A DNA stretch of 39,244 nt from a virus: the UHGV virus genome UHGV-0144129; one strand, written 5' to 3'. A program made the position numbers and the translations under genes. A model generated the notes under the pieces. The model saw only the letters and a list, made by a program, of their open reading frames with translations, had not been told where the DNA came from and made no database searches. Below are positions 5,274 through 39,244 of this stretch, piece by piece. Within the stretch, counting starts at the first letter, position 1. The number at the start of each line of letters is the position of its first letter.

Positions 5274-5771
5274 TCAGTGCCACGATTTTTGCTTCTTCAG
5301 TGAATCGTATTGCTGCTCGCAGAATTCCCCTGCGATACGATACTTTTCAGCCTCAGCTGCTGTTGCGTTGTAAACTCGGTTGCTTTCTTCAAGCATGTCG
5401 GCGAGCACACCGATGACCTTGCTGGCTGGCGTGCCAGGGGGGAAAGATCCGGTATAGTGTTCGGCGAGCCGCCTGGTTTTGTCAAGCTCGGCGCGCATGC
5501 TGTCAGCAGCGGAATTAGCATACTCAGCATCAGCACGCGCCGCATCGATACGGGATTGTGCTTCACGTTCAATTTGTGTTTTCTCCTGCTCACGCTGTGA
5601 CCTTAACTTATCATCAGCCTGTTTCTGATCTTCCTTCGCCTGAGCATACCCGGCATCGTACTGGCGGCTGCCATGCACATTCCAGGCAACAACGCAGCTG
5701 GCCACCAGAGCAGCAAGCATCGACACGATAAGCAACTGTTTCCAGTATGCTTTCACGAATGCCTTGATCAT
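5274..5771 (-). CDS. Rz-like i-spanin
   Basis: N-terminal TM (LLIVSMLAALVASCVVAW) then a charged coiled coil. Last gene of the lysis cassette. ATGA overlap with the upstream gene. Confidence 0.6.
   Translation of the reverse strand: MIKAFVKAYWKQLLIVSMLAALVASCVVAWNVHGSRQYDAGYAQAKEDQKQADDKLRSQREQEKTQIEREAQSRIDAARADAEYANSAADSMRAELDKTRRLAEHYTGSFPPGTPASKVIGVLADMLEESNRVYNATAAEAEKYRIAGEFCEQQYDSLKKQKSWH
5297..5545 (-). CDS. Rz1-like o-spanin lipoprotein, embedded in the +1 frame of Rz
   Basis: Internal Met of ORF 5297-5593 gives MRRVLMLSMLIPLLTAC with lipobox LTAC, followed by a Pro-rich mature part. Lies entirely inside Rz. Confidence 0.5.
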   Translation of the reverse strand: MRRVLMLSMLIPLLTACAPSLTKPGGSPNTIPDLSPLARQPARSSVCSPTCLKKATEFTTQQQLRLKSIVSQGNSASSNTIH

Positions 5772-5992
5772 ATACTTACCTTCGGCTGAAATCGGCGAAC
5801 GTTAATTGGCTCACCATATGGCCATGACCAATTCAGCCAGGTAAATGTTTTCAGCTCGCACATCGCATCGAAAAATTCACCAGGATCGATGTCGGAATAG
5901 CTGCAAACTATTTCCAGACCACGTTCTGTTTCTTGCAAAGCAACTGTATCTGTTTCCCAGCGGGGAATGAGCAAAGAAAATAGTTTATTCAT
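5768..5992 (-). CDS. hypothetical protein, translationally coupled between endolysin and Rz
   Basis: Start ATG at 5992 overlaps the endolysin stop (ATGA); its own stop overlaps the Rz start. 74 aa, Trp-rich, no family recognised. Confidence 0.4.
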
Positions 5993-6615
5993 AAAAGCAC
6001 CTTCTTGGCCGAAAGATACCGTACACGGCGATCGTCGATGCCGTTCCGGCCACCATTGATAATCAGAGTTACACGTGCAATATCGCCGGTATACTTCATG
6101 CATCCTTTGCTGGCGAAGAACCACGCCGCGCTACGAGCCGCGTATTCGTCCTGCACCAACAGTTCAGGATTCTCCAGCAGGTCCACTTTCAGGCCGTTTC
6201 CGCAATCACGATAGTTATTCAAACCGGTAATCTGGATAAGTCCGCGGCCACGGTAATTCCAGCCATCACCAGAGGCATTGTTCCCCATGCGTTTGCTGTA
6301 CACCAGATTGGCAATCGCACGCTGGCGCTCAGGTGGCAATGGTGGCTCGCCTGCACGACGACCCAATGCGTTAGCCTGTCCCTGAGTAAGACGACCGGCA
6401 CGAACGAAGTTAGCCAGTCCGGTGACGCTGTAATTGAAATTCTCCTGCAACCTGGTGAAGCCACCAGACTCATGCCCGACCTGAGCAATAAACATTGCCT
6501 GATCTTCGGGTTTTCTGATACCAAACTCTTTCATCGCAGAAGTTATATGCGAGAACCAGCGTGCGGCCAGAGCCTCGCTAATACCAGCAGCTCGCTGGAA
6601 TTGTTTAATCTCCAT
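5989..6615 (-). CDS. endolysin, glycoside hydrolase family 19-like
   Basis: Internal Met ([11 protein letters not shown]...) preceded by [16 protein letters not shown] matches the GH19 catalytic-region signature (AQxxHETGG). Follows the holin-like genes. Confidence 0.7.
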
Positions 6616-6913
6616 GTTTAGACCTCGATGTTTTGAAAATCTGAACAACGTTACCGCGTGTTTTAATAACCGCGGCAAGCATGACAGCGTTGATAATGAC
6701 CTCAGATAAATCCACAGCCATTGGCGTACGTAACCAGATTGCATAGGCGACACGAACAGGAATACTGGCCGCAGCAACAATAAGGAAATAAGCAAGCCAC
6801 CCTCCCCATCTTCGATGTTGAGAGCCGTTACGCCGGAATGTGACAACGCGAATTGCTATGCCAGTACAAATAATTGCATTGGTGATAAGCAAAACAAGCT
6901 CATTAGTTACCAT
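6605..6913 (-). CDS. holin-like small membrane protein
   Basis: 102 aa with 2-3 predicted TM helices and a basic C-terminus. Overlaps the endolysin start by 11 nt. Confidence 0.45.
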
Positions 6914-7313
6914 CGCCTTTTCTCCCAGGAATTAACTGGCGTGGATTATCAGAACGGTGATAGAGCCATATACCAATTCGCACTGCGACAATTGCTGACA
7001 CGAATGCGCCAGCAGAGAAAACAATCCCTTTCTCGAAAGAGTCCTGCGTGATGGTAGGTATCATGCTGGCTATTCCGATAAGAATTGATGTTGTTGGTTT
7101 GTAAAAGAGAAGACCACAAAGAAAGCTGAGTATCGACAAGAGTACACGACGACGAACAGGATACTCTACAGCAGAGGTAACAAATATTACCGCACCAGCC
7201 AGAGCACCGAGAGCCACCTCTGGCGGAACGCCGTAGACGACAGAGGCCAGCGCACCCAAGCTTAACCCTTGATTCAGTGAATCCGCCGTAACCGTGCCAT
7301 TCATGGTAACCAC
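6903..7313 (-). CDS. holin/antiholin-like membrane protein
   Basis: 136 aa with several hydrophobic helices, immediately downstream of the tail fibre gene and upstream of the endolysin. Confidence 0.4.
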   Translation of the reverse strand: MVTMNGTVTADSLNQGLSLGALASVVYGVPPEVALGALAGAVIFVTSAVEYPVRRRVLLSILSFLCGLLFYKPTTSILIGIASMIPTITQDSFEKGIVFSAGAFVSAIVAVRIGIWLYHRSDNPRQLIPGRKGDGN

Positions 7314-7401
7314 CGTTTATTGTGCATAAAAACCCCCTTAGAAGATGAGGTCCATCATACACAATAAACCATTTACGGATAATAATTACCTAAACTTGGT
7401 C

Positions 7402-10209: not shown

Positions 10210-10229
10210 TACTGTATAAATATACAGTT
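10210..10229 (+). promoter_or_regulatory. LexA (SOS) box
   Basis: TACTGTATAAATATACAGTT is CTGT-N8-ACAG with an AT-rich spacer and TA flanks; 18 of 20 match the E. coli consensus TACTGTATATATATACAGTA. It sits about 20 bp upstream of the ATG at 10249. Confidence 0.65.
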
Positions 10230-10248: not shown

Positions 10249-10506
10249 ATGCAGCAGTATCACTATCCACTGGAAGACGGATTTACCGAAAGGATTCACA
10301 CGCCGGGAGGCGTCAGGTCACTGGTGGAGGGATCGCACTTGATGAAATTACTCCGGGATCTCGATAAGGATGGATTTAATGTCGATGGCCCACTTGCCGA
10401 ACTGACTGCACTGATTAACTACGTCACCAGCTCACAGATGTCTATGCGGGATCTGCAAACACATCTCGACTATTGTGCCGAACAATTACGAAAACAAACC
10501 CGGTAA
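10249..10506 (+). CDS. SOS-controlled mini-antirepressor (stand-alone copy of the Ant C-terminal domain)
   Basis: GGAG 8 nt upstream of ATG. The 85 aa product aligns over its whole length with the C-terminal about 80 aa of both Ant proteins (PLxxGxxxxIHxPxGV...DGxxVxGxxAELTxxxxYxxxxxxxxRDxQTHxxY). Confidence 0.55.
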   Translation: MQQYHYPLEDGFTERIHTPGGVRSLVEGSHLMKLLRDLDKDGFNVDGPLAELTALINYVTSSQMSMRDLQTHLDYCAEQLRKQTR

Positions 10507-10528: not shown

Positions 10529-11257
10529 CTATCGTTTCGCTTTGTGCTCATCCCAGCACGTTTTGCACCATGCCATTAAGCCGTCCGCATTTTGATTATT
10601 AGGGTAAAAGCTGGTTCGTTTTCTGCGGACATTACAAATTGGGCACCACTTCATATGGCGTGTATTCTTTGGGCCATCGAGACACCTTGCACACCATTTA
10701 GTCAATCCATCTGGATTTTTTGACGATTTCCTGAATTTTTCATATGGAAGGTTTATTCTGCATCGCAAGCACTGCTTGCTACCACTTGAAACTCTGTTAG
10801 CTGATTCTTCTTTTGGCGGCGATACAGAAGGTATTCTTGCTGGCTCTGATATTGCCTGAGGTGCTTTTTTAGATGACTGAGACGATATGTCATCACCAGG
10901 GAATCTTCCATGATATGCCGGACGCGTTGACACTCCAGGTGGAATCTCAGCTGTAAACGGCTTTGGCTGAATCAGTTGCCTCTCTTTTGCTAACTCCTGC
11001 TGTTTATAATATGTCTGGATTACCGCACTATCATAAGCAGGAGGTGCGGAAATATTAGGCGCATTACCTCCAGTTTTTTGAAACTGAGTAGAGGTGTGTT
11101 CTATCACCTGTGTACGATTAATCGTTATCTCCCCATCTTCGGTCTTTATCGTTTTGTTATGATTAACGACCGTACGATCAGAGATCTTAGTCTTGTTCTG
11201 GTTGATAACGTAAATAATCACCGCAACCACACCAACAACTATCCAGAAAACTTCCAT
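10529..11257 (-). CDS. membrane-anchored protein with tandem zinc-ribbon motifs
   Basis: SD GAGG before ATG. N-terminal TM helix, Pro/Ser-rich linker, then two repeats of a P/ADGLxxWCxxC unit with extra CxxC pairs. Transcribed immediately before the tail fibre gene. Confidence 0.5.
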   Translation of the reverse strand: MEVFWIVVGVVAVIIYVINQNKTKISDRTVVNHNKTIKTEDGEITINRTQVIEHTSTQFQKTGGNAPNISAPPAYDSAVIQTYYKQQELAKERQLIQPKPFTAEIPPGVSTRPAYHGRFPGDDISSQSSKKAPQAISEPARIPSVSPPKEESANRVSSGSKQCLRCRINLPYEKFRKSSKNPDGLTKWCARCLDGPKNTRHMKWCPICNVRRKRTSFYPNNQNADGLMAWCKTCWDEHKAKR

Positions 11258-11656: not shown

Positions 11657-12313
11657 ATGAACGCTCAACTCATCCCCGTATTCAACGGCACTATATCTAA
11701 CGAAACAGCCCTACTTTGTAATGCCCGCGATCTGCACGCTTTTTTAGGTGTTAAAAAGGTGTTTGCAGCATGGATTACAAATCGCATATCAGAATACGAA
11801 TTCATTGAAAATCAAGACTATATTTTGCTTTCCAATTTGGGAAAGCAAACATCTGGTAGAGGCGGCCACAACCGCAAAGAGTACCACCTCACCCTTGATA
11901 CAGCCAAAGAGCTGGCGATGGTCGAGCGTAACGAAAAAGGTCGCCAGGTGCGACGCTACTTCATTGAATGCGAGAAACGTTTAAGACAACAAGAAACAAA
12001 AGTGGAGAAGGTCTTGTCAGGCTTCATGCCCGCCATTATGGAGGCGATCAAGCTGGAAGACAAAAAAGAATACAGCGCCCCACTGAAGCCCGGCTACCGT
12101 AGCCTGATTCATTCGCCGTCTGGTGTTCTCGGCCTGACGGAGAACTCACTGCTGATGAATTTGCTGAACCAGTTACAGGAAGACGGGCACGATGTATCGG
12201 GCGCGGCGGCGGAGCTGACCACCATGTTCTGCTACATCGTTGGTGTGAGCAAATGCCTGCGTGATATCCAGACGCACGCGGAGTACATCAACGACAAGGC
12301 AGGATTCTTCTGA
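11657..12313 (+). CDS. antirepressor-like protein (second Ant; Bro-N/ORF6N-like N-domain plus shared Ant C-domain)
   Basis: N-terminal region ([22 protein letters not shown]...) resembles phage antirepressor / Bro N-terminal domains. The C-terminal 80 aa are near-identical to the C-terminus of the Ant at 13323-14267. Confidence 0.55.
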
Positions 12314-12542: not shown

Positions 12543-13178
12543 ATGCCACAACAACTGCTGAATCCGGCAAAGGTAACTGAGGTTTTCGCTCATCTGAACG
12601 AAACTCCAGACAACCGCGCCCTGTATTCAGAGTTAGTGAACGGCAACGATGTCACATCTGATGTCAAAGGCGTTTCTCTGGCTCCTGGATACCGCGTTGT
12701 CCGTGTAGACGATCGTAAGAAAGGCGAGATTCCACAGGCGCACTTTGAACTGTCATTGATAAATGACCTCACCGAAGAGGTAGTGTATTACAATCGTGTC
12801 ATTATCCAGCCTGACAGCTATCTTAACTGCCGTCCTGTCACGCAGATATTGGTATGGAGAACCCAGAAGCCTAAGCATCGTGCTGTGCTTCATGATTTCG
12901 CCGGCATCATCTTCATGAACTACCTCTTGGAACGGTACGATATCATCGTGTCAGATCGCAACCAGACTCATGAAGGCATGTCGTTCTGGCAGGCTCGCAT
13001 GTATGACGCACTGGAACTTGGCCTCCACCTCTATGGTTACGACATGATGACATGCGAGCTGATAGAGATGAATAACGAGGAAGAGCTTGAGAAAGGTGAA
13101 ACCTGGTTGTGGGGTGATGCGGAAAACTTCCAAAACAGATTGGCCATAATTTCAAAGCATAAGCTGCCAATAAAATAG
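12543..13178 (+). CDS. hypothetical protein (cargo between the inverted repeats)
   Basis: 211 aa ORF with normal codon usage and its own terminator. No motif recognised. Confidence 0.5.
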   Translation: MPQQLLNPAKVTEVFAHLNETPDNRALYSELVNGNDVTSDVKGVSLAPGYRVVRVDDRKKGEIPQAHFELSLINDLTEEVVYYNRVIIQPDSYLNCRPVTQILVWRTQKPKHRAVLHDFAGIIFMNYLLERYDIIVSDRNQTHEGMSFWQARMYDALELGLHLYGYDMMTCELIEMNNEEELEKGETWLWGDAENFQNRLAIISKHKLPIK

Positions 13179-13185
13179 TTCTTTA

Positions 13186-13299: not shown

Positions 13300-13555
13300 C
13301 ACATCCCTGTGCCGCCGTTCTGTCAGAAGAACCCTGCCTTGTCGTTGATGTACTCCGCGTGGGTCTGGATATCACGCAGGCACTTGCTCACACCGACGAT
13401 GTAGCAGAACATGGTGGTCAGCTCCGCCGCCGCGCCCGATACATCGTGCCCGTCGTCCTGTAACTGGTTAAGCAGATTCATCAGCAGTGAGTTCTCCGTC
13501 AGGCCGAGAACACCCGACGGCGAATGAATCAGACTGCGGTAGCCGGGCTTCAGCG
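13300..13555. repeat. right arm of the ~255 bp inverted repeat (3' end of ant plus 3' UTR)
   Basis: See the left arm at 12083-12337. Confidence 0.7.
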
Positions 13556-14267
13556 GATAACCATAACATTTTGTCTGTGTTTTAATTGCCTCACGAAGCG
13601 CATCTAACATCTTGACTGCCACTTCATCATTCTCTGATGCAGATCCAGCAGGGAGATGCTCCCCTTCAAGCGGAACCCGAGCAACAAGAGACAACGCTTC
13701 GGCGAATTGATCTTCATCAATTTCTTTGTACGAACAGCCAAAATGAGATTTCAGTGACGACCACATGGTGATCATCGCCTTAGCCTGTTTTTCTTTTGGC
13801 AGAGACTGACCGCGACTCATGACGAGTTGTTTAATGGCTTCCTGCTGTTCAGTGGTTATTTTACCCGGCAACGCCTTTTTAGCTTTGCGTGGGTTAACCA
13901 CATGGCCTTTAGTCCAGTACTCGTAGAGCACATCGTCACACTCTTCCTGATACTGGATTACCTTGTCGCGGATTTCAGGGCGGACTTTGTTAGGGCTGAT
14001 GGTTTGCAACCAGCCAGCAAGTTTGCGAAGTGCCAAACAAATAATCTCACGGCGCTGTTCATCCCCAGGAAGCTGCATTGTGATTTTCACAATGCAGGTT
14101 TTAAACCGCTGCTTCATTTTCGTAAACTGTGAAGCCCAATCCATACCCATGCCTTCAACGATAGGTTTCATTGGGGTGTACGGTTCTCCGTTGTGATTGA
14201 CAACATAAAGTTCTGCGCCGTGGAATGGCACGTTGATAGTAGATACCGCTGTTGCTATACTCGTCAT
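13323..14267 (-). CDS. ant: antirepressor Ant (AntA-type N-domain plus shared C-domain)
   Basis: N-terminus (INVPFHGAELYVVNHNGEPYTPMKPIVEGMGMDW) is AntA-like. Directly downstream of the arc-like gene, as in P22 immI. Confidence 0.7.
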   Translation of the reverse strand: MTSIATAVSTINVPFHGAELYVVNHNGEPYTPMKPIVEGMGMDWASQFTKMKQRFKTCIVKITMQLPGDEQRREIICLALRKLAGWLQTISPNKVRPEIRDKVIQYQEECDDVLYEYWTKGHVVNPRKAKKALPGKITTEQQEAIKQLVMSRGQSLPKEKQAKAMITMWSSLKSHFGCSYKEIDEDQFAEALSLVARVPLEGEHLPAGSASENDEVAVKMLDALREAIKTQTKCYGYPLKPGYRSLIHSPSGVLGLTENSLLMNLLNQLQDDGHDVSGAAAELTTMFCYIVGVSKCLRDIQTHAEYINDKAGFF

Positions 14268-14339
14268 GTCGTTAATTCCTATACGTAGTTTTACGATACT
14301 GAAGCCCTGACGGTCTGGCCACCGTTGGGCTTCGCTGTT

Positions 14340-14507
14340 TTATGCCACGCTATTCTTCTCACCAGTGAGTCCATACACTTTCCTCAGCTGATAGATAATC
14401 TCTGTATTGAACTTTCGGCATTCTTTTTCGCCATTTCTTTCAATAGCTAACTTCACATCGTCCGGAAAACGAACTCGTCGTTGACACATCTCTTTTGCTT
14501 TTTGCAT
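14340..14507 (-). CDS. Arc-like ribbon-helix-helix repressor
   Basis: Start is the internal ATG (MQKAKEM...) with SD AAGGAG 7 nt upstream. The RRVRFPDDVKLAIERNGEK...NTEIIYQLRK region has an RHH beta-strand plus two helices. Sits between the mnt-like gene and ant. Confidence 0.55.
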   Translation of the reverse strand: MQKAKEMCQRRVRFPDDVKLAIERNGEKECRKFNTEIIYQLRKVYGLTGEKNSVA

Positions 14508-14627: not shown

Positions 14628-15059
14628 ATGAGCAGAGAAGATCCACAACTAAGGATCAGACTTCCCGTTGAAGTAAAAGAAAAAATAGAAATTTCTGCAA
14701 AAGCCAATAAGCGCTCAATGAACGCTGAAATAGTACAACGTCTTGACACCAGCTTTCTGAAAGATATTCATGAAGATGACGTAATTTCTGCTTATGAAGC
14801 AAAAATTATTGCAAACAATGCACGGCATGAAATATCAAATATTATTTTCAAAAGAACTTTTAATGAAATCAATAAGAAAATAACACTTGGACATACAAGT
14901 TTTTATATAAACCTTAATGACCTTGAACTGGAATCACTTGCAGATAATGATTACCAGATCATCTTTGAAAAAACATTTAATAAGCTCAATGAACTAGGTT
15001 ACATCATCTGTGAAAACTCATGGGATGCAGATGGTTTTGGAATTGAAATACCTGAATAG
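14628..15059 (+). CDS. mnt: Mnt-like ribbon-helix-helix repressor with a long AT-rich C-terminal extension
   Basis: MSREDPQLRIRLPVEVKEKIEISAKANKRSMNAEIVQRLDTSF closely parallels the N-terminus of P22 Mnt (sequence recalled from memory). Divergent from arc-ant. About 60 extra C-terminal residues compared with P22 Mnt. Confidence 0.6.
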   Translation: MSREDPQLRIRLPVEVKEKIEISAKANKRSMNAEIVQRLDTSFLKDIHEDDVISAYEAKIIANNARHEISNIIFKRTFNEINKKITLGHTSFYINLNDLELESLADNDYQIIFEKTFNKLNELGYIICENSWDADGFGIEIPE

Positions 15060-15149
15060 GAAGAACAAAAGGCGTGTACATATTACACGTCTTTAATACA
15101 ATTGAAAAACGCCACATTACTGATGTATGTTACAACAAGGAGCGATATT

Positions 15150-15713
15150 TTGAAAACCATATCTATATTAAAGGTTGCATTAGGCGTCGCTATTATTTTG
15201 ACTCTCTCAATATTGTTTTATTTTTACCACAAAAAAACTGCTATTGCTCTTGATGGTCACGCGGCAAACTCATTTTTCTCAGAGTACATAGTGCCGCTAT
15301 CAGGAAGCGGTATAACAAATAAATATACTGACTATGACATCAAATATGGAATTGATGATGGGGAGACTATTGCATTACATGTAATCATTAAAAACCTAAT
15401 GACAGTAAATAAAAATACAGACTTCAACGATAAAAATACAATACATCACAACAACAGCAAAACATTAATTTCTTATAGTAGCAACATCTATACGGATAAA
15501 TACCTAAAATACATCTCAGAAGATACAATAAAAGCAACCAGCGAAAAGTTAAAAAACATATATTGTGCATCCGGCAGTTTTCACAAATTATCGCCGCAAG
15601 AGCGTTTATTCTACGAAGCAAGAAAACAACGTAAGTCAATAATATTACATTATTATGCTGATTCAGGGGAGTCACTCATATTTAATATTGGGGTTTCCCC
15701 TGAATCATGCTAA
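15150..15713 (+). CDS. AT-rich membrane-anchored moron protein (candidate superinfection-exclusion or defence factor)
   Basis: Best start is TTG at 15150 with SD AAGGAG 7 nt upstream (the ORF track starts it at 15102). N-terminal TM helix (ISILKVALGVAIILTLSILFYF), then an N/K/Y/I-rich domain. Opposite strand to the flanking virion genes. Confidence 0.45.
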   Translation: MKTISILKVALGVAIILTLSILFYFYHKKTAIALDGHAANSFFSEYIVPLSGSGITNKYTDYDIKYGIDDGETIALHVIIKNLMTVNKNTDFNDKNTIHHNNSKTLISYSSNIYTDKYLKYISEDTIKATSEKLKNIYCASGSFHKLSPQERLFYEARKQRKSIILHYYADSGESLIFNIGVSPESC

Positions 15714-18700: not shown

Positions 18701-18739
18701 TCCGTTATTAAGATCTTCAGCTTGTGCATAAACTGGCAT
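15725..18739 (-). CDS. internal virion / ejection protein (T7 gp15/gp16-like by position)
   Basis: 1004 aa ORF, the last of the large genes between tail tubular B and the tail fibre. Assigned by synteny and size. Confidence 0.5.
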   Translation of the reverse strand: MPVYAQAEDLNNGLIPSGNVLPEQTGFDVALPEGANPEPLPPEPSVWGAAMRQNNILSGFFRPARQFEPVEGYNPYADKNELHGYEYWGAKFADSRSPEETAWIKQQIDDENEDRRLLSDAGVVGTLASIAAGMDPVTVASMFIPGAQGGALARIGSQIAIGAAGTALSEVVLNNQQITRSWGESAAHVAAGAMMSGVFASAGVALSPSVRAAATREVADALDNMSITSATDRAAASLSDGGSVGAMKIDTATLDDLTPVSGGWVGKAAWKAGSYLTPLTRLMESPSKTVRKTTLELAENNFTLKGNERGIETPVAVETRTRGWQREEAAVVVGNKQAYAKYKADGGDMSFDSFRQQVGNAMRSGDVHANPVVQETAQAMRTVLNRVKVEMQKLGLLPPDEELKALGQASYFPRIYKVGKIISERDKFRRILVDWWSRGNKTLDPEDAEIAADIVINKITGAKVPQDFVSVFSVKAAGSTKERTLNVPDSLIRDYLESDVNYVLQRHIREAAAEIELTRTFGKRTMTERLQLIEDEYDSLLREVPKKIKAKYDESVANLKARYESNGEVVPQGKLDSLMRKYEKELRKEQSRLSKSRANDLRDITALRDRLVGTYGMPDDPSSFFVRAGAFLRDVNFTTKLGGMTVSAIPDLARGVMVNGFRNTMKGYASQISQSPAFKASKEEMLKMGIGLEAVLHSRSRAIGDLVDSSSRTTAVEAGMERITDAFGKLTLMDRFNDINKSMNGMLTSDGILSGAFSARRMAKLGINDNMAARIRSEFEKHGEVIDGWHIGNFDKWDDQYVAGVFQSAVLKDVNNTIITPGIGDTPLWASTPMGRTIFQFKSFTTASYNRALLGGLQEGTAQFYYGTAFQIALGSLVYALKEASKGKNVDWSPEKLVLEGIDRSGILGPLMEYNNMAEKATGGAVGLGALFGTGTQSRYASRGFVGSLFGPSFGLADSIIDVTAGVLNGDAGDRIVHNVRTLIPGNNLFWIAPLINQVDPVMR

Positions 18740-22034: not shown

Positions 22035-22498
22035 TATTTTCTCTCCATGTGAAATCTGTGGAAATTAAGACCAAGAGCACCATAAGGCGCGGCTTCTTCA
22101 AGCCTGAATCCAAGCCAGTGCAGCCATGCTTTGGCAACATGGTTTCGCTCGTCGACGTAGTTTTCCAGGCGCGGATAAACTGCCAGCATCTGCTGCAATA
22201 CAGGGCGGCAGTGGCGAAGAAATGTCTTCTGATATTTTTCAATACGGCTGGTTCCTACCAGCCAGGGCGTACCATTGCCACCGATCATTGACGCCGGAGA
22301 TACGCCAAACATGGTTACCAGTTCTCCGTTCGCAAATCCTGACCAGGCCATAGTCGCAGTGCGAAGACCAACACGCAGCGCATCTTCGGTAGTCATCAGC
22401 GATACCGCATACAGTTCGTCAATATCAGCCTGACGAACATCCGGCAAAATCATCTGAAGATGCTCTTCGGTAGCGGGAACAATTCGAACATCGATCAT
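22034..22498 (-). CDS. virion assembly / internal protein (gp13-like by position)
   Basis: 154 aa ORF between the gp12-like and gp14-like genes. Synteny only. Confidence 0.35.
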   Translation of the reverse strand: MIDVRIVPATEEHLQMILPDVRQADIDELYAVSLMTTEDALRVGLRTATMAWSGFANGELVTMFGVSPASMIGGNGTPWLVGTSRIEKYQKTFLRHCRPVLQQMLAVYPRLENYVDERNHVAKAWLHWLGFRLEEAAPYGALGLNFHRFHMERK

Positions 22499-34602: not shown

Positions 34603-34873
34603 TATTTACCTTTATCGCGAACACCTTTACCGGTTTATCACCGAAGTGCGGATGTGTGATTGTCTTGATTTCATATCCGTCATACGGAACATCAATTCTA
34701 CGGCTGGAATCGTCGCGCTTCGGATATCCCTTTGTGATAATCAGGCGGTCATACTCCCGGAACATAATTCGCTTATTCCAGTAGTCATTACACAAGCGAT
34801 ACTCTTCCGTTTTCTCTCCACGAATCATGGCATCGAAGTATTCACCTTTGACGGCAAGTTGCAGGTTAGCCAC
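34592..34873 (-). CDS. ASCH/PUA-like (DUF3850-like) small protein
   Basis: LAVKGEYFDAMIRGEKTEEYR pattern at the N-terminus resembles ASCH-domain phage proteins. Family assignment is tentative. Confidence 0.35.
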   Translation of the reverse strand: MANLQLAVKGEYFDAMIRGEKTEEYRLCNDYWNKRIMFREYDRLIITKGYPKRDDSSRRIDVPYDGYEIKTITHPHFGDKPVKVFAIKVNIDG

Positions 34874-35153
34874 GACCTTCCTCCTTTGGCTTGTGAATTT
34901 GTATCGTCATGCCGCTTTGAGTGGTGACTACAACGACAGAACCAGGCTGAAGGCTGTTAAGATTGAATGCTTCGTAAAACGAATCCAATGCCAGTGCTTT
35001 TTTATTCTTTCGGTTCCACCAACGCCATCCCTTGCTACAGGCTACATCGACAATCCACTGTCCACTCCTGTAAGCCATATAAAACCAGATGAGCAAAACC
35101 TGAAGGAATGCTATCCAGTCAATAATCGTATATTTCGCGAAGGAGTCCATCAC
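34866..35153 (-). CDS. small membrane protein
   Basis: Start at the internal ATG that overlaps the upstream stop (ATGA). TM helix YTIIDWIAFLQVLLIWFYMAY. Confidence 0.4.
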   Translation of the reverse strand: MMDSFAKYTIIDWIAFLQVLLIWFYMAYRSGQWIVDVACSKGWRWWNRKNKKALALDSFYEAFNLNSLQPGSVVVVTTQSGMTIQIHKPKEEGRG

Positions 35154-35836
35154 TTCACCTCCTGCGGCGGTTCTGGTAGCGGCATCCAGAACAAGGCGTT
35201 CCCTAACCACGATAAAGTGCCGTCGCTCAACTCCACGTATTCCCCTTGTACCTGTCCTGCCATATACTCGCCGTGCTTTGAATAAATTAAAATCCAATCA
35301 TCTTGAGGGGGCATTCGCTCACTACAGCTTATCCAACCATCCGGAATTACCGGAGAGTTGCCATTTACATCGAAGTTTGGCTCTGCGTCCTGAACCAGGA
35401 GGATGTAACCATTCTTGGCTGTATCAAGTTCTAACGCTTCGGTGACGGTGCCGAAATAGCGATTACCTAAATCAGCATCACAAGTGCTTATATCAATGGA
35501 AACTTCCATGCCTTCGATTAATTCTGGCAAGTTGTAAGTTTGGCTTACAGGTTGGCTACCCTGAAGCATGGCGGCGCGGTGACACCAGATAATCCAGCCA
35601 AGCGCCATATCCCATGCCATGTATTCTCTATCGCCATTTTTTGCCCTACGGCGATCTACAGATTCCCCGAAACGCTTCTCCATAAATAATTCATAGGCTG
35701 CTCGTTCATCCGATACTACTGCCAGCGATGCCAGAGCAATTTCATAAGCCCGACGCTCAATATTGTCTCGGACGTCCAGGCTGCCTATACGCTCTCTGAT
35801 TTCTTTAATCAGTTCTTTGTCGGTTAAAGTGGTCAT
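35150..35836 (-). CDS. DUF551-domain protein (Eaa-like)
   Basis: C-terminus DGWISCSERMPPQDDWILIY ... WMPLPEPP is the DUF551 signature found in lambdoid early-region proteins. Confidence 0.5.
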   Translation of the reverse strand: MTTLTDKELIKEIRERIGSLDVRDNIERRAYEIALASLAVVSDERAAYELFMEKRFGESVDRRRAKNGDREYMAWDMALGWIIWCHRAAMLQGSQPVSQTYNLPELIEGMEVSIDISTCDADLGNRYFGTVTEALELDTAKNGYILLVQDAEPNFDVNGNSPVIPDGWISCSERMPPQDDWILIYSKHGEYMAGQVQGEYVELSDGTLSWLGNALFWMPLPEPPQEVK

Positions 35837-36366
35837 GCTGCGTTTCCTTCTTTCTTATTAACAATTACACCGTCATATATTTCATTAAGGTGTCCTCTTA
35901 GCTCCATGCGCCTTAATGCAGATAACATGTAATCGCATTCAACCTGCTTATTCCCAGTAAATGGCTTATCGTCAGGATTACCCCAACAGCAATTACCCCT
36001 GGGCCATCCATGTACTTTCCGTACTCTTCCGTTAACAACGTGAAGTAATCCCCAGCCGGGAGGTAAATCCTCAACTGAAATAATTTCCGGCTCACTAATA
36101 AAGAATCGCCAGTCGCCCATGCCAAGTGAGGGATTTTTACGGAAACGCTTTTTTCTATCTGCCAACAAGTCAGCACGAGAACACTTCGCCTCTATCAGGC
36201 ATGATGCTGAATTTCTGAATCCCATAGCATCTGGCTGTTCTCCGGTACTGGTTACAGCAACAAAGCGGTCATGAAAGCAAACCTTGAACCCGTTGCGCTT
36301 AAGGAACTTGTACGCAATCTGACAGAGTTCGTGGTGTGTTAACGCCATATCACTTTCCTTTCCCAT
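35833..36366 (-). CDS. putative PD-(D/E)XK-fold nuclease
   Basis: QPDAMGF ... CLIEAKCS gives a PD ... ExK arrangement. 177 aa. Motif-only call. Confidence 0.35.
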   Translation of the reverse strand: MGKESDMALTHHELCQIAYKFLKRNGFKVCFHDRFVAVTSTGEQPDAMGFRNSASCLIEAKCSRADLLADRKKRFRKNPSLGMGDWRFFISEPEIISVEDLPPGWGLLHVVNGRVRKVHGWPRGNCCWGNPDDKPFTGNKQVECDYMLSALRRMELRGHLNEIYDGVIVNKKEGNAA

Positions 36367-36377
36367 GTTGTCATGTG

Positions 36378-36665
36378 TTAGTCCTCATCCACTTCAACCC
36401 CATATTTCAGCGTGATGCCGTGCCAATCATCAGCCCAACTGGTTAGCCCTGGCGCATCAATGCTAGGCATATAGACGCTTGCAGTGTGGTAGCCCTTATC
36501 GTTATCAATGCTGGCAACGTGCTCGCCGTTGTATGCGCTCAGCGTGTCCAGGACGCTATAAAACTTTCCTCCGGCTGCCCTGAAATCCTTTACAGCCTTT
36601 ACAAGGCGATTCCACGCTTTTTCCTGTTCTGGCGTCAGGTCGATTAATTCCTGCAAAGTTGCCAT
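36378..36665 (-). CDS. hypothetical protein
   Basis: 95 aa acidic ORF, coupled to its neighbours. Confidence 0.35.
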   Translation of the reverse strand: MATLQELIDLTPEQEKAWNRLVKAVKDFRAAGGKFYSVLDTLSAYNGEHVASIDNDKGYHTASVYMPSIDAPGLTSWADDWHGITLKYGVEVDED

Positions 36666-36666
36666 A

Positions 36667-37401
36667 TCACCCTCCTTTGATGCCTATATTTACAGCCAGG
36701 CAAGCCTCTTTGAGCACCCAGTCAATAGCGTCTTTCCATGCCCCTGTTTCGACGGGAGGATTCGTGTGCTTTACCTGGTCGTAGAAGCGTACTGCTTTAA
36801 CCAGTCCTTCCGGCACCACTGGCACTGGCTGTTTAGCTTCTAAATCAGCAATTCTGTCAACCACGGCATCGACGGCATCTGAAAAACTGAAACAGTTACT
36901 CCACTCCGGCCTGTTCCCAGTTGCTGCAAAGTACATATCAGCTAAAGCAGACTCAGCATGGTCACGCTCATTGATGAGTAGCTCTTCGCTTTTCTCCAGT
37001 TCAGCAATACGCTTACTCCCATCCGAGATAACACCTTCGTAATACTCACGCTGCTCGTTGAGTTTTGATTTTGTCTGCTCAAGCTCAACGCGCAGCTTCC
37101 CTACCGTTAGCGCAATTTCCTCGTTCTCCTGGTCACGGCGTTTGATGTATTGCTGGTTTCTTTCCCGTTCATCCAGCAGTGCCTGCACTACTTCTGGGTT
37201 GAAAGCTGCGATATAACGAGCGTTGTTCTCTGCGTTTTTCTGTCCATCAAAGCCGGTCCATTTGATAACGTCTTCACATCGTTTATCACCGGGCGTATGC
37301 ACCGCATACGTACCAGTACCCGTCGAAATAAATGCGACCCATTCGCCCTGTGTTGCCTGTTTTGCTATCTCACGCAGTGCCTGATAATTAATTTCGCTCA
37401 T
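36667..37401 (-). CDS. Ead/Ea22-like protein
   Basis: MSEINYQALREIAKQATQGEWVA N-terminus and a central coiled coil, typical of Ead/Ea22-like proteins of lambdoid early regions. Confidence 0.5.
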   Translation of the reverse strand: MSEINYQALREIAKQATQGEWVAFISTGTGTYAVHTPGDKRCEDVIKWTGFDGQKNAENNARYIAAFNPEVVQALLDERERNQQYIKRRDQENEEIALTVGKLRVELEQTKSKLNEQREYYEGVISDGSKRIAELEKSEELLINERDHAESALADMYFAATGNRPEWSNCFSFSDAVDAVVDRIADLEAKQPVPVVPEGLVKAVRFYDQVKHTNPPVETGAWKDAIDWVLKEACLAVNIGIKGG

Positions 37402-37416
37402 TCATCGCCCCACTCA

Positions 37417-37574
37417 TCACAATATGCTTCGACAGGTGTTTTTCCTGCTTCGTAGTCATCACGCCAGGCTTCAGCATCAGCAGCACTTCCACCACGTAAC
37501 TCTGCATAATCCATTAACAGTTCATGCCATTCTTCAAAACTGACGTTGTATTTAGTTGAACCAAAATCAGCCAT
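37417..37574 (-). CDS. small acidic protein (52 aa)
   Basis: Hand-translated; not in the ORF track because it is under 60 aa. Strong SD GGAGGAAG before the ATG; stop 16 nt from the next start. Confidence 0.3.
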
Positions 37575-37657
37575 TTTGTTCTTCCTCCTCGTCTTTTATT
37601 TCGTGATATGAGTAATTGCAGTAGTTAAAGAAAATTTCTTTTGCTTCGTCATGAATT

Positions 37658-37885
37658 TCATCTGGTGTTGTCGCCAACAACATCGCAGAATGCCTGAACT
37701 GCCTTACGAGCCAGTTCATTCTCCGCCGCCAGCGCATTAGCACGCGCCAGTTGCACTTCCAGTTGCGTTGCCAAATCGCTGATCAGCTTTGCCACACTGC
37801 GCATATCAACGGCACCACATTCTGCTTTCAGTTCCGAAGCCATCTCATGCCCGGCGGCAACTAACCCTTTGATATTACTTTCCAT
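37658..37885 (-). CDS. hypothetical protein
   Basis: 75 aa helical ORF in the nin-like region. Confidence 0.35.
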   Translation of the reverse strand: MESNIKGLVAAGHEMASELKAECGAVDMRSVAKLISDLATQLEVQLARANALAAENELARKAVQAFCDVVGDNTR

Positions 37886-37946
37886 CTTTACCCTCGCTTA
37901 TCCACATAACTTATTGATTACATTGATAACTAAAAAGATCGTCGAT

Positions 37947-38291
37947 TCAGAACTCTTCGATGTTCCAGCCACCACCTGCTTTCTTTGGTTTAACCGTTAC
38001 CCCGATGATTCGGAACGGATACTGATCTGCGGCGACTTTGGTTTTCACCCTGGCGTCGTCGGTCCAGAAACCTTTCACTTCGTGCAGTTCCATCTCGCCG
38101 GTGGCGAGCATCACAGCAAAATCGGGCGTATAGAACGTGTTGTCAGCTAACCGCAACTTGATACCCTCAAATCGATACCAGACGATTCCCCCTGCACGTT
38201 TACGCTGCTCAAGGTGCTGGCAATACGCAGATTCTGTTTTGTTCATCTGGCCTGTTTTGAGTCGACCAAGAGCCTGTATCTGTTTTCTCAT
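37947..38291 (-). CDS. putative Holliday-junction-resolvase-like nuclease (PD-(D/E)XK fold, DUF1064-like)
   Basis: YTPDFAV ... GEMELHEVKG gives a PD ... E.K arrangement as in Hjc-type resolvases. First gene after P, where lambdoid phages carry recombination/resolvase functions. Confidence 0.35.
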   Translation of the reverse strand: MRKQIQALGRLKTGQMNKTESAYCQHLEQRKRAGGIVWYRFEGIKLRLADNTFYTPDFAVMLATGEMELHEVKGFWTDDARVKTKVAADQYPFRIIGVTVKPKKAGGGWNIEEF

Positions 38292-38295
38292 GATT

Positions 38296-38310
38296 TACCT
38301 CTAAGGTAAT
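38296..38310. promoter_or_regulatory. operator-like perfect palindrome TTACCT-CTA-AGGTAA (family A)
   Basis: Lies 5 bp upstream of the ATG of the 37947-38291 gene and overlaps its SD. Confidence 0.4.
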
Positions 38311-38356
38311 TAAAAACCACATAAGACACGAAATCAATAGAGTTTAGAATATTTTG

Positions 38357-38371
38357 TTACCCAACAGGTAA
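38357..38371. promoter_or_regulatory. operator-like palindrome TTACCC-AAC-AGGTAA (family A, one mismatch)
   Basis: About 47 bp from the previous site, just downstream of a weak hairpin plus T7 terminator after P. Confidence 0.35.
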
Positions 38372-38408
38372 TTGTAGAGACGTAAAAAAATGCGCTATCG
38401 CGCTGGTA

Positions 38409-39194
38409 TTACTTGATAAATCCTGCCGCCTTTCCCCGCCTGTATTCCTCCATCAGCCACTGCGCCGGTGTTATTCCCCCAAGGGTGGCGGCGTTAGGCA
38501 TGCACCCGAAACTTCTCCCTGGTGGATGGTAAACGTCTCTCCCTGTGCCCGGAGGTGTACTCATGGGCTCTGGCTTTGCCTGTATGCTGATCACCGGATC
38601 GGGTATCTGCTGTCCGGAAGCCACCTTTTTCGCCCAATCATCGAGCAGCCTGCGCGCGTGTTTCTCAACCTCAATCTCGCTAAGCTGGCGCTGATACATT
38701 GCACGGCGGGTATCACATACGACCCAGTACATAACCGGATGTCGCCACGGGAATCTTTCGGGACCACCAGGATATAAACTTTTTTCCTTGCTGTACCGGT
38801 GAAACTCCGCCATCACATCATCAATGGTGACGCCAAGAACCATCTTGCTGTCTTTACACCACTTGATGAATTGCCCTGGCGACGGCCAGAACGGAGACTC
38901 ACTGGCGCGGGCGTGGCGCATACCAGCAGAAACCTGTTCACGGGTTCGGATCCCCCCTTCGGCAAACGCAGCAATCCACTGCTGTTTTGCAGCAACTTCC
39001 TGCTCTGGCGTCTTCAGGTTGGTTACCACTGCCGCCGGAAACAGTTGTTTCAGCTGTTTGAAAAGGGCATCAACAAGCCTCTCTGCTGACATGTTCACCA
39101 CGTTGTCATTGTTGGTGTACTGATGCTCATAACCTGACATGCGAGAAAGGGCTTCTCCGTCACGGTTTTGTATCGCGGTAAAAACGTTGTTCAC
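38409..39194 (-). CDS. P: replication protein P-like (DnaB helicase loader)
   Basis: EQVSAGMRHARASESPFWPSPGQFIKWCKD matches lambda P (EQVNAGMRVARRQNRPFLPSPGQFVAWCRE, from memory). Proposed start is GTG at 39194 with SD GGAGGA 6 nt upstream, overlapping the stop of the upstream gene; the track start is ATG 39209. Confidence 0.7.
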   Translation of the reverse strand: MNNVFTAIQNRDGEALSRMSGYEHQYTNNDNVVNMSAERLVDALFKQLKQLFPAAVVTNLKTPEQEVAAKQQWIAAFAEGGIRTREQVSAGMRHARASESPFWPSPGQFIKWCKDSKMVLGVTIDDVMAEFHRYSKEKSLYPGGPERFPWRHPVMYWVVCDTRRAMYQRQLSEIEVEKHARRLLDDWAKKVASGQQIPDPVISIQAKPEPMSTPPGTGRDVYHPPGRSFGCMPNAATLGGITPAQWLMEEYRRGKAAGFIK

Positions 39195-39244
39195 AAGAAA
39201 TCCTCCCATGCTTCAGGGCTGTTCCAGTGCGGAACGTTGTTATC
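39191..39244 (-). CDS. 3' end of the upstream replication gene (O-like initiator), truncated by the window edge
   Basis: Open frame running into the window edge and ending ...DNNVPHWNSPEAWEDFL with stop TGA overlapping the P start (GTGA). Confidence 0.35.
   Translation of the reverse strand, partial: DNNVPHWNSPEAWEDFL

Follow-up and report, generated by a model that had tools for sequence, protein, structure and literature searches.

A probable Uetakevirus prophage at guaA with remotely T7-like tail and ejection genes and a P22-type immI cassette

Results

The DNA analyzed here, the 39,244 nucleotides of UHGV virus genome UHGV-0144129 (the window), very probably holds the left four-fifths of a temperate podovirus prophage of the genus Uetakevirus (epsilon15/phiV10/TL-2011b type) at the 3' end of guaA, a genus reading that applies to the part in the window, as the formal criterion is a whole-genome similarity value and the element extends past 39244. 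Positions 15000–39244 were 98.3% identical over 84% to Escherichia phage TL-2011b (NC_019445/JQ011317), a phage of the EHEC O103:H25 Norwegian outbreak strain with the same gene order, which has been handled as a Uetakevirus (PMC11522302). The identities to phiV10 were 97–99% at the nucleotide level from TerS through the gp13-like gene. An earlier note on this DNA had called for a gene-order comparison with epsilon15-like phages; in their gene maps, TL-2011b, phiV10, the prophage of strain P4 and the complete KC-Dl-1 prophage (guaA-int...lysis) were all collinear with the window.

The prophage runs from about 5175 to the end of the window at 39244, where it runs off; the repressor, the recombination genes and the integrase lie beyond, and attL is likewise not in the window. 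Its left end is the att core CTCCCACTCAAT (5175..5186), which is made up of the final guaA codons (..IEWE*) in reverse complement and was placed by aligning the window with the unoccupied UPEC132 site and the attP of phiV10/TL-2011b. The core attgagtgggaatgatt published for phiV10, epsilon15, and ZX5 matches it (PMC9782041). The prophage thus begins at the att core and not at 5274, the start of the previously proposed span.

Profile and homology searches found each gene of the previously proposed minus-strand order at its place. TerS (33360–34034; PF03592) and TerL (31888–33363; PHROG_2), both on the minus strand, lie ahead of the portal gene as had been reported. The portal protein (28775–30454, minus strand; PF12236, E 4e-187) is of the T7 gp8 type, and PHROG 332 and 449 cross-match T7 gp8. 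Two features are oriented against the late genes: a tRNA-Arg(TCT) (31103–31179, plus strand; ARAGORN; Rfam 73 bits), also included in the annotation of KC-Dl-1, and a 139-aa ORF (31378–31797, plus strand; PHROG 4846). Downstream of the portal, the minus-strand genes for a Bbp19-like protein (28482–28778; PF25181) and a 233-aa capsid-assembly protein (27784–28485; PHROG 458) precede the capsid gene; the Bbp19-like gene is an addition to the earlier gene list.

The 233-aa protein carries a "protease/peptidase" label in databases. However, it is predicted to be all-helical, with a disordered N-terminal portion of 80 aa rich in Pro/Ala/Asp/Lys, and no invariant Ser or Cys was found among 33 diverse homologs. 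These tests lean toward a scaffolding protein rather than a protease, and so favor the name scaffold given to it before over the database label.

The major capsid protein (26783–27775, minus strand; PF20911, E 2e-149) is of the epsilon15 gp7/BPP-1 type with an HK97 fold. It aligned almost over its full length with PDB entries 3j4u, 8cjz, and 3j40, leaving no space for a delta domain. Between the capsid and adaptor genes are three capsid-accessory genes that had gone unlisted, all on the minus strand: the Bbp16 cement (26294–26731), a 114-aa ORF (25948–26292), and the gp10 staple (25574–25903), with PF21628/PF21190 matches (1e-51, 5e-47) for the cement and staple block.

All tail and ejection genes are on the minus strand. 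The tail adaptor, the gp11 equivalent (24969–25577, 202 aa), gave an AF2 model with a pLDDT of 86, for which Foldseek returned the Carin-1 connector (E 2e-16) and T7 gp11 (7box, E 5e-7, TM ~0.6); both Carin-1 and LME-1 outscored T7 gp11. The tail nozzle, the gp12 equivalent (22498–24969, 823 aa), matched the Carin-1 "Tail Nozzle" (8ck1_A, E 3e-217) and LME-1 orf18. Four genes for internal or ejection proteins span 15725–22498. The gp13-like protein (22034..22498, 154 aa) belongs to PHROG 308, which is also home to T7 gp13. The gp14-like protein (21456..22034, 192 aa) matches PF24072 T7_gp14 (E 2e-8), and its gene is named "virion core protein, T7 gp14 family" by PGAP in P4 and KC-Dl-1. At the gp15 position, a 905-aa protein (18739..21456) contains an SLT lytic transglycosylase domain (PF01464, residues 263–342), as had been claimed for a core protein, and shares PHROG 14342 with the N-terminus of T7 gp16. 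The gp16-like protein (15725..18739, 1004 aa; PHROG 342, E 1e-209) spans profile positions 203–1225 of the PHROG that also contains T7 gp16 and lacks an N-terminal transglycosylase domain. Its tblastn matches were weak and fell on podophage internal virion proteins (Ralstonia, Pelagibacter, and Escherichia megetsur phages). The gp14/15/16-like ejection proteins of epsilon15 and their synteny with T7 were described previously (PMC8954989).

The tailspike (7402–10053, minus strand; PF13884) has PHROGs 1640, 8460, and 27277 in common with T7 gp17. Its N-terminal ~165 aa form a T7 gp17-type tail-attachment domain and its C-terminus an S74 intramolecular chaperone, with PDB matches to the Carin-1 fiber N-terminus and the K1F chaperone, respectively. 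Its receptor-binding middle (7500–9500) matched neither TL-2011b nor phiV10 at the DNA level.

The lysis cassette is on the minus strand and contains two holin-family membrane proteins (6605–6913, PF05449; 6903–7313, PF16931), a GH19 (chitinase-like) endolysin (5989..6615; PF00182, E 4e-9), a 74-aa ORF (5768..5992; PHROG 2241), the Rz i-spanin (DUF2514, 5274..5771; PF10721, E 5e-22), and, embedded in Rz, an Rz1 o-spanin (5297–5545) whose translated frame has a signal peptide and the lipobox LLTAC. Strain P4 has an identical endolysin gene, whose PGAP annotation agrees with this assignment; the endolysin was missing from the earlier note, and its place within the cassette differs from T7. Holin and Rz/Rz1 are present as proposed, but a holin-endolysin-spanin set is generic and the order is not T7-specific.

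At the other end of the window, a lambdoid-style early or "nin"-like region (34261..39209, minus strand) has orthologs in phiV10 and TL-2011b. It encodes a regulator (34261–34602), DUF4752 (34866–35297), DUF551 (35150–35836), Ead/Ea22 (36667–37401; Ead_Ea22, 8.7e-43), and DUF1064 (37947–38291) proteins and a lambda P homolog (38409–39209; PF06992, 1.5e-56). Profile matches bear out the previous lambda P, Ead/Ea22, and DUF551 assignments. A P-type helicase loader is thus present, but the term "lambda-type replication" derives from this homolog alone; the initiator of the closest relatives, whose gene lies beyond the window, is a protein with HTH and DnaT domains and not lambda O.

The ejection genes and the tailspike are set apart by a stretch of about 5.6 kb (10.1–15.7 kb) with regulatory and accessory genes, of which only immI had been noted. 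Divergent from the tailspike is a small antirepressor, Ant (10249..10506, plus strand, 85 aa), 87% identical to Ant (SPC32H_020) of Salmonella phage SPC32H, with a SOS (LexA) box, TACTGTATAAATATACAGT (10210..10228, plus strand), immediately 5' of it. Next to it, a 242-aa accessory protein (10529..11257, minus strand; PHROG 6762) has C-terminal zinc-finger-like repeats and weak endonuclease VII/Lar-like matches. An AntA-type antirepressor (11657..12313, plus strand, 218 aa; PF08346, E 4e-26) has an Ant-like C-terminal domain by alignment. Upstream of its gene, an isrK-like sRNA (11422–11498, plus strand; RF01394, 67.7 bits) and a C4-type antisense RNA (11523–11607, plus strand; RF01695, 61.2 bits) both exceeded their Rfam gathering scores. 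A 211-aa ORF (12543..13178, plus strand; PHROG 1349), absent from TL-2011b, phiV10, and P4, is flanked by inverted-repeat arms of 258 nt (12080–12337/13299–13556).

The P22-type immI proposed earlier for the middle of the prophage is complete and positioned as in P22. It comprises a P22-type Ant (13323..14267, minus strand, 314 aa; P22_AR_N PF10547, E 1e-44), the sar antisense RNA spanning the arc-ant junction (14269..14336, plus strand; RF00262, 45.2 bits, E 3.5e-6, gathering score 43), an Arc-like ribbon-helix-helix repressor (14340..14507, minus strand, 55 aa), and, divergent from arc-ant, a Mnt-like repressor with an N-terminal Arc/Mnt RHH domain (14628..15059, plus strand, 143 aa; PF03869, E 1e-14). 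The Arc-like protein had no Pfam match and owes its name to a weak P22 Arc match (32% over 40 aa), its position and the RefSeq name of the TL-2011b ortholog. Past mnt, a ~187–203-aa protein with an N-terminal membrane helix and low G+C (15102..15713, plus strand; PHROG 8033) occupies the place of sieA on the P22 map. Similar to immI of P22 (sieA-mnt-arc-sar-ant), the cassette has the ejection-protein genes on one side and the tailspike on the other. The identities to P22 were, however, only 32–40%: the Mnt-like protein was 32% identical to P22 Mnt over 88 aa and is longer (143 vs. 83 aa), and the membrane protein had no similarity to SieA. Ant was 40% identical to P22 Ant over residues 1–214 only; the ~100 residues beyond include a swapped ~80-aa Ant-like domain, homologous to the small Uetakevirus Ant and 43% identical to it. 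Three antirepressor genes, for the small, AntA-type, and P22-type Ants, thus have one effector domain in common.

Discussion

The T7 similarity of this phage, a relation at the level of profiles and folds, is remote and confined to genes for the portal, tail, and ejection proteins. Similar to T7 class III, the genes run from portal through capsid-assembly protein, capsid, adaptor, nozzle, gp13-gp16, and fiber to holin and spanins, and the sizes from adaptor to gp16 are comparable (202/823/154/192/905/1004 aa in the window and 196/794/138/196/747/1318 aa in T7). Pfam and PHROG families, the latter including those of gp13, gp16, the gp17 N-terminus, and the transglycosylase domain, and the adaptor fold are also common to both. 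However, pairwise identities were only ~11–15% where alignable, BLASTP and phmmer searches with T7 proteins gave essentially nothing above noise, and hhalign did not match the adaptor profile to T7 gp11. "T7-like" therefore rests on Pfam/PHROG profiles, one predicted fold, and synteny. Different from T7, the capsid, scaffold, and terminase families are others, the terminase lies upstream, the transglycosylase domain is on the gp15-position protein instead of gp16, and the phage is temperate, without an RNA polymerase, with its endolysin inside the lysis cassette. Thus, the T7-like virion proposed before holds for the portal, tail, and ejectosome, whose genes share both ancestry and order with T7 gp8 and gp11-gp17, but not for the capsid and terminase, and T7 likeness does not extend to replication and transcription genes. 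The closest solved structures are those of Carin-1, a Cobetia marina phage (PDB 8CK1/8CJZ), and Legionella phage LME-1 (9EFK), which resemble this phage in the adaptor (33% identity), nozzle, fiber N-terminal domain, and capsid and differ from it in hosts and non-structural genes. Both have been described as structurally T7-like (PMC12407071).

Among its nearest relatives, TL-2011b was 98–100% identical in nucleotides at 13.0–21.5 kb (immI, the 187-aa membrane protein, and the 1004-aa and 905-aa ejection proteins) and 97–99% from nozzle to TerS, and has the same guaA-side host flank (yfgI, yfgH). It differs in the receptor-binding part of the tailspike, in lysis details including Rz (75–93% identity), in portions of the early region (36.5–37.5 kb), and in carrying the YafO toxin and an O-acetyltransferase in place of the 211-aa and 242-aa ORFs. 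phiV10 and epsilon15 share the genes from TerS and TerL through portal, capsid, adaptor, and nozzle to gp13/gp14 (97–99% and ~77% identity, respectively), lambda P, DUF1064, the small divergent Ant beside the tailspike, the lysis cassette, and guaA integration. Their ejection cassette, however, has three proteins (837/600/824 aa in phiV10) instead of two (905/1004 aa); they also lack the Mnt/Arc/sar/Ant immI and possess an O-antigen acetylase. The P4/FP4 E. coli prophage (NZ_CP072688, canine uterus) was 100% identical over 1–11000 (host flank, lysis, tailspike, and small Ant) and over 21500–28871 (gp14-like gene to portal), the compared P4 locus ending at 28871, but has the phiV10-type three-protein cassette and no immI. 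This copy is a recombinant of a P4-identical backbone and a ~10-kb TL-2011b-type block. Breakpoints mapped with 500-nt tiles place the block at ~11.3–21.6 kb, with immI and the two large ejection proteins, a clean cassette swap relative to P4.

The abrupt switch from 100% identity with P4 to 98–100% with TL-2011b, together with a right end outside the window, could also indicate an assembly chimera or a defective remnant rather than a functional phage. We consider this extremely unlikely, as none of the structural ORFs is shortened compared with its orthologs and the same joint arrangement, from nozzle/gp13/gp14 through the SLT and 1004-aa proteins to immI, is present in 36 complete genomes, six IMG/VR loci and the complete KC-Dl-1 prophage at the guaA site. 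Equally hard to credit is descent of the virion module from a P22-like phage (Lederbergvirus). immI matches P22 in content and location, and epsilon15 gp14- and gp16-like proteins group with P22 (PMC8954989), but the portal belongs to the T7 gp8 family (PF12236), the gp11/gp12-type adaptor and nozzle are not found in P22, and the capsid is of the epsilon15/BPP-1 type. Moreover, no P22 gp1/gp4/gp10/gp26-type portal, tail-hub, or needle genes are present, and when both large ejection proteins and the tailspike were compared by BLASTP with gp20, gp16, and gp9 of P22, no match reached E<=0.05.

The earlier note implied an unusual, recent chimera of a virulent T7-family phage (Autographiviridae) with lambdoid and P22-like temperate phages. 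Genuine synteny with T7 gp8 and gp11-gp17 and the presence of lambda P, Ea22, DUF551, and immI are in its favor. Yet no gene in the window encodes a phage RNA polymerase, a DNA polymerase of the T7 type, a primase-helicase, or a gp9/gp10-family protein, and similarity to T7 at the profile and fold level only argues for an ancient relationship. The whole arrangement is also 97–99% identical to long-known phages and occurs in ~9% of complete E. coli genomes (nozzle gene in 506 of 5426). A recent chimera is thus highly improbable, and a T7/lambdoid hybrid of this kind was rejected because this DNA is nearly identical to TL-2011b and phiV10. The earlier description of the combination as uncommon likewise fails, since the layout is standard for Uetakevirus, TL-2011b had already been published, and 36 of the 5426 complete E. 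coli genomes carry the same immI and core-protein variant.

As a Uetakevirus prophage, the element may work as follows, by homology with its relatives. Lysogeny would be kept by the repressor encoded just past the window and countered by the small LexA-controlled Ant, native to the genus, and by a second Ant under C4/isrK-type RNA control; this variant would add the P22-type immI cassette (Mnt-like, Arc-like, sar RNA, and Ant) against the same repressor. Replication would use the lambda P-like helicase loader. TerS and TerL would fill with DNA an HK97-fold capsid of the epsilon15/BPP-1 type, assembled on the T7 gp8-type portal, with scaffolding probably provided by the 233-aa protein, and strengthened by the Bbp16 and gp10 cement proteins. 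The tail would consist of the gp11-type adaptor, the gp12-type nozzle, and tailspikes docked via their gp17-type N-terminal domain, and the ejectosome of gp14-, gp15-, and gp16-like proteins, with the transglycosylase domain on the gp15-position protein. Holin, the GH19 endolysin, and Rz/Rz1 would bring about lysis. The group is one of common, well-described temperate short-tailed phages of E. coli and Salmonella, of which this is an ordinary member: the prophage type and its combination of modules are already known and are neither new nor rare.

Placement and Limits of the Prophage

Megablast comparison assigned the region to the genus Uetakevirus, the group of epsilon15 and phiV10. Nucleotides 15000–39244 were 98.3% identical to Escherichia phage TL-2011b over 84%, and the prophage runs past the end of the window. 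The identities between phiV10 and the window were 97–99% over about half, and PAS61, phiV10, O157 typing phages 9 and 10, phiv142-3 and ZX5 gave coverages of 48–64% at 97–98%. The head and tail genes of epsilon15 were about 77% identical. The ICTV genus level is about 70% nucleotide similarity across the genome, and TL-2011b has been treated as a member of Uetakevirus (PMC11522302). The gene order was that of the genus: TerS, TerL, portal, capsid of the epsilon15 gp7 type with a gp10 staple, tail, ejection proteins, tailspike and lysis genes, with matches to PF20911 and PF21628. It was collinear with phiV10, TL-2011b, SPC32H and the P4 and KC-Dl-1 prophages. What the earlier note had noticed is confirmed, and its interpretation is supported in part. 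The region is of a known kind, essentially a known phage type, and its combination of modules is the one that defines a genus already described.

The E. coli chromosome occupies nucleotides 1–5186, which were 100% identical to many complete genomes and carry yfgG, yfgH and yfgI. A small island (2088–4877) separates yfgI from the prophage. It encodes an AAA ATPase and an orphan response regulator and contains the remnant of an IS integrase core; the ATPase matched the defence-system ATPase models PDC-M01A, AriA, PtuA and GajA (best E 1e-17). In K-12, guaA follows yfgI directly. In UPEC132, whose site is empty, the flank runs straight into the guaA stop codon. The 12-mer CTCCCACTCAAT at 5175–5186, the reverse complement of the last guaA codons, is the guaA end in the empty site of UPEC132 and the att core of the prophage, after which the window follows phage sequence. 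The attP regions of phiV10 and TL-2011b share it except for the first base. Because the window shares this core with both the empty site and the phage attP, the prophage starts at about 5175. The start of 5274 proposed earlier is therefore some 90 nt too late. The prophage continues past 39244. Integration at the 3′ end of guaA through a core attgagtggga.., as found here, is a trait of Uetakevirus with a published attP, and phiV10, epsilon15 and vB_EcoP_ZX5 have been shown to integrate there through the core attgagtgggaatgatt (PMC9782041). The part beyond the window can be read from a collinear, complete copy in E. coli KC-Dl-1, where a DnaT-domain initiator, a repressor, RecET-like genes, a methylase and an integrase lead to guaA.

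Gene Content

Gene families were assigned by Pfam and PHROGs. The head genes encode TerS (PF03592), TerL (PHROG 2), a portal of the T7 gp8 family (PF12236, E 4e-187) with a Bbp19-like protein beside it, a capsid protein (PF20911, epsilon15 GP7), a Bbp16 cement protein and a gp10 staple. They are accompanied by two "tail proteins" of 202 and 823 aa (PHROGs 394 and 376, respectively), two "internal virion proteins" of 154 and 192 aa, of which the latter matched PF24072 (T7_gp14), a 905-aa protein with an SLT domain at residues 263–342, and a 1004-aa protein of PHROG 342, "internal virion protein with endolysin domain." The other late products identified were a tailspike, a pair of holin-family proteins, an endolysin of family GH19 and the DUF2514 protein Rz. 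Given that the embedded frame 5297–5545 encodes a signal peptide and a lipobox, MRRVLMLSMLIPLLTAC, it is assigned as Rz1. Searches of ten structural proteins against NCBIfam gave no useful match, and TerL had none in the PDB sequence search.

In the early region, the lambda P, Ead/Ea22 and DUF551 proteins named in the earlier note were all found (PF06992, Ead_Ea22 and DUF551), together with DUF4752 and DUF1064 proteins. The lambda P-family helicase loader matched PF06992 over residues 45–205 (E 1.5e-56). "Lambda-type replication" is thus supported by this loader; the initiator gene is placed beyond 39244, and the initiator adjoining P in phiV10 and TL-2011b is an HTH_36 and/or DnaT-domain protein and not a member of the Phage_rep_O family.

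A tRNA-Arg(TCT) gene (31103–31179, plus strand; 73 bits in Rfam) is situated between TerL and portal and runs in the opposite direction to the late genes. An 83-aa ORF (31109–31360, minus strand) overlaps it with its 3′ end, and a 139-aa ORF (31378–31797) follows on the strand of the tRNA. No defence-system match was found by PADLOC for the 139-aa protein or for the accessory proteins of 211, 203 and 242 aa.

T7 Likeness of the Virion Genes

The BLASTP check proposed in the earlier note was run, with phmmer, between 23 window proteins and 16 T7 proteins. All matches were at noise level except those of the SLT domain to the N-terminus of gp16 and, weakly, of the 1004-aa protein to gp16. Profile and fold comparisons did, however, link the portal, tail and ejection modules to T7. 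The AF2 model of the 202-aa adaptor (pLDDT 86) matched in Foldseek the Carin-1 connector (E 2e-16), LME-1 and then T7 gp11 (7box: E 5e-7, TM about 0.6, 12% identity), followed by about twenty other podophage adaptors and nothing else; hhalign of a shallow, 23-sequence adaptor profile against T7 gp11 was negative. The 823-aa protein matched the Carin-1 "Tail Nozzle" (E 3e-217). T7 gp13 and the 154-aa protein have PHROG 308 in common, and T7 gp16 and the 1004-aa protein PHROG 342. The 1004-aa protein aligned to positions 203–1225 of the latter profile and thus lacks the N-terminal transglycosylase domain, which is carried instead by the 905-aa protein at the gp15 position (PHROG 14342, PF01464). 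In tblastn, the 1004-aa protein also weakly matched podophage internal virion proteins, among them those of Ralstonia, Pelagibacter and Escherichia (megetsur) phages. Moreover, PHROGs 1640, 8460 and 27277 are common to the N-terminus of T7 gp17 and the first ~165 tailspike residues.

Hence a gp8-type portal, gp11 adaptor, gp12 nozzle, gp13–gp16 internal proteins and a gp17 N-terminal domain follow one another in the T7 order, by remote homology only. Epsilon15 ejection proteins resembling gp14, gp15 and gp16 in T7 synteny, with a T7-like core stack, have already been recorded (PMC8954989), and LME-1 and Carin-1 have been described as structurally T7-like without sequence similarity (PMC12407071). 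These profile and fold links and the synteny make "T7-like virion" an apt description of portal, tail and ejectosome, in the sense of an ancient relationship; it does not extend to the capsid, the terminase or anything outside the late region. The capsid belongs to PF20911/PHROG 212, whereas T7 gp10 belongs to PHROG 267, and the closest solved capsid structures were BPP-1 3J4U, Carin-1 8CJZ and epsilon15 3J40. TerS and TerL lie upstream of portal, as was noted before, whereas those of T7-like phages are at the right end. A T7 lysis order had also been claimed. Holin and Rz/Rz1 genes are indeed present, but the cassette of holins, endolysin, a small ORF and Rz/Rz1 is a generic arrangement, while T7 keeps its lysin elsewhere and has terminase genes interleaved.

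The shared portal, tail and ejection modules might suggest membership in Autographiviridae. ORFs for a phage single-subunit RNA polymerase or for T7-type replication genes were found neither in the window nor in the complete KC-Dl-1 relative. With these, a gp9-family scaffold, a gp10-family capsid and a right-end terminase all lacking, membership was rejected. The reading of the prophage as a P22-like phage was also considered and rejected.

A Probable Scaffold Rather than a Protease Between Portal and Capsid

The gene between portal and capsid (27784–28485) encodes a 233-aa protein that is named protease, endoprotease or peptidase in nearly all records and "capsid assembly protein" in a few Pelagibacter phage records; its relatives at ≥80% identity were all listed as "peptidase." It had no match in Pfam, NCBIfam or, with either the single sequence or a profile, PDB. 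Among 33 diverse representatives, drawn from a very large family with 13,806 cluster representatives, A121, W150, D157, G161 and G162 were invariant, and there was no conserved Ser or Cys. The N-terminal third is a disordered, 80-residue stretch rich in Pro, Ala, Asp and Lys, after which helices follow. The AF2 model contained only helices and disorder at low confidence (pLDDT 43), so that its secondary-structure trend counts as weak evidence. In addition, the 330-aa capsid protein aligned end to end with the capsid chains of mature virions, leaving no room for a delta domain.

The want of a protease match and of a conserved Ser or Cys, the helical and disordered make-up and a capsid without room for a delta domain make a scaffold, although unproven, more plausible than the protease label of the databases. 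The family-wide protease/peptidase annotation is probably wrong and looks like a propagated guess. The earlier assignment as scaffold is thus favored, but without detectable likeness to T7 gp9: hhalign of the 33-sequence profile against gp9 gave a probability of 0.2%.

The immI Cassette and Three Antirepressors

The call of a P22-type immI was fully borne out, as Mnt-like, Arc-like, sar and Ant elements were all found at the position equivalent to that of P22, here between the 1004-aa gene and the tailspike gene. The Mnt-like RHH protein (14628–15059, plus strand; PF03869, E 1e-14) was 32% identical to P22 Mnt. The 55-aa Arc-like protein (14340–14507, minus strand) had weak similarity to that of P22, 32% over 40 aa, and no Pfam match. 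The sar RNA (14269–14336, plus strand; Rfam RF00262, 45.2 bits against a gathering score of 43) is antisense to the arc-ant junction. Ant (13323–14267, minus strand) contains P22_AR_N and was 40% identical to P22 Ant over residues 1–214. The mnt and arc-ant genes diverge from a 120-nt intergenic region with a promoter-like site at 14571–14543. In P22, sieA-mnt-arc-sar-ant lies between gene 16 and the tailspike gene 9; at the sieA position, the window has a low-G+C gene (15102–15713, plus strand) for a membrane-anchored protein without sequence similarity to SieA.

The TL-2011b orthologue of the Mnt-like protein (gp40, 113 aa, "hypothetical"; 30507–30848 of comparison locus L001) has a RefSeq start that is too late and loses the N-terminal Arc/Mnt RHH domain. 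With the 143-aa reading that PGAP uses in KC-Dl-1, the alignment to P22 Mnt again begins at residue 1.

Three antirepressor genes, each under different control, are found in this one prophage (10210–10506, 11422–12313 and 13323–15059). The small Ant (85 aa; 10249–10506, plus strand) and SPC32H Ant were 87% identical, and a consensus SOS box precedes the window gene by 21 nt. Similar to SPC32H, and as in Uetakevirus, its gene is divergent from the tailspike gene behind a predicted LexA site. The AntA-type protein (11657–12313, plus strand) is encoded behind isrK-like and C4-type RNA genes, and the P22-type Ant is placed under the Mnt/Arc/sar circuit. Elsewhere in the window, at 31295–31310, the LexA-box pattern CTGTN8ACAG is matched exactly a second time, by CTGTAAACCAGTACAG.

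The P22_AR_C domain was not found in the window Ant, which has only P22_AR_N and whose alignment to P22 ends at residue 214; its C-terminal ~80 aa are homologous to the small Ant of Uetakevirus. The two large Ant proteins scarcely differ over their C-terminal ~80 aa, which matched the small Ant over its whole length at 43% identity (E 1e-16). From these matches, the P22-type Ant appears to have acquired the resident effector domain, and the immI of the window would work like that of P22 as a domain-swapped variant. If the ~80-aa domain that all three proteins share, a homologue of SPC32H Ant, binds repressor, immI may have been fitted to the repressor of the resident Uetakevirus through a C-terminal swap, bringing three induction signals to bear on one repressor, a proposal to which we give somewhat less than even chances.

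The duplicated coding segments for the Ant C-termini form a 258-nt inverted repeat (12080–12337 and 13299–13556) whose arms are 96% complementary. The 961-nt segment between them holds a 211-aa ORF (12543–13178, PHROG 1349) that TL-2011b, phiV10 and P4 lack. Through this repeat, the segment might be inverted or exchanged as a cassette.

Variable Cassettes and Frequency

Mosaic structure was mapped by comparison of 500-nt tiles. The prophage of the canine strain P4 was 100% identical to the window at 1–11000 and 21500–28871, where the fetched P4 locus ends, whereas 13000–21500 had no counterpart in P4 or phiV10 and was 98–100% identical to TL-2011b. By this tile comparison, the mosaic is a clean one, and a block of about 10 kb with the two large ejection proteins, the membrane protein and immI has been exchanged relative to P4. 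An assembly chimera was considered and rejected.

Among near-identical relatives (comparison loci L005–L084), the large ejection proteins that follow an almost invariant nozzle-gp13-gp14 block come in at least four alternative sets: 837/600/824 aa, 915/1129 aa, 905/1004 aa (the window, 15725–21456) and 873/565/849 aa. In the set of the window, the gp15-position protein has the transglycosylase domain and the gp16-like protein is without it. The tailspike (7402–10053) also varied. Its receptor-binding part (about residues 165–640) had no DNA match in TL-2011b or phiV10, whereas two canine strains, P4 and FP4, carry it at 100% identity. It matched a PHROG with the annotation "glycerophosphoryl diester phosphodiesterase" (E 3e-24), and an S74 chaperone domain of the endosialidase type forms the end of the tailspike.

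The nozzle gene was present at ≥80% coverage, mostly with 95–100% identity, in 506 of 5426 complete E. coli genomes, and also in 485 IMG/VR stretches; immI together with the gp16-like block occurred in 36 complete genomes. Cassette types were counted from a search with the nozzle protein that returned only 99–100% identical copies. Among the 61 IMG/VR loci with enough flank, nine had the TL-2011b-type ejection cassette, six of them with immI. The combination had been thought uncommon. This does not hold, as about 9% of complete E. coli genomes carry the phage type and the immI-bearing variant has been sequenced as TL-2011b: within a common prophage, the combination recurs as a minority variant, already published with that phage.

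These results are corrective. The T7 likeness is ancient, at the level of folds and confined to portal, tail and ejectosome, and what varies comes as discrete cassettes: the set of ejection proteins, immI, the receptor domain of the tailspike and the accessory genes. If the antirepressors do converge on one repressor, LexA/SOS, C4/isrK-type RNA and Mnt/Arc/sar would be independent inputs, and the novelty would lie in lysogeny control and not in the virion. The P4 block swap, the four ejection cassettes and the three antirepressors with a shared domain provide usable examples for module exchange or induction control in temperate podoviruses.
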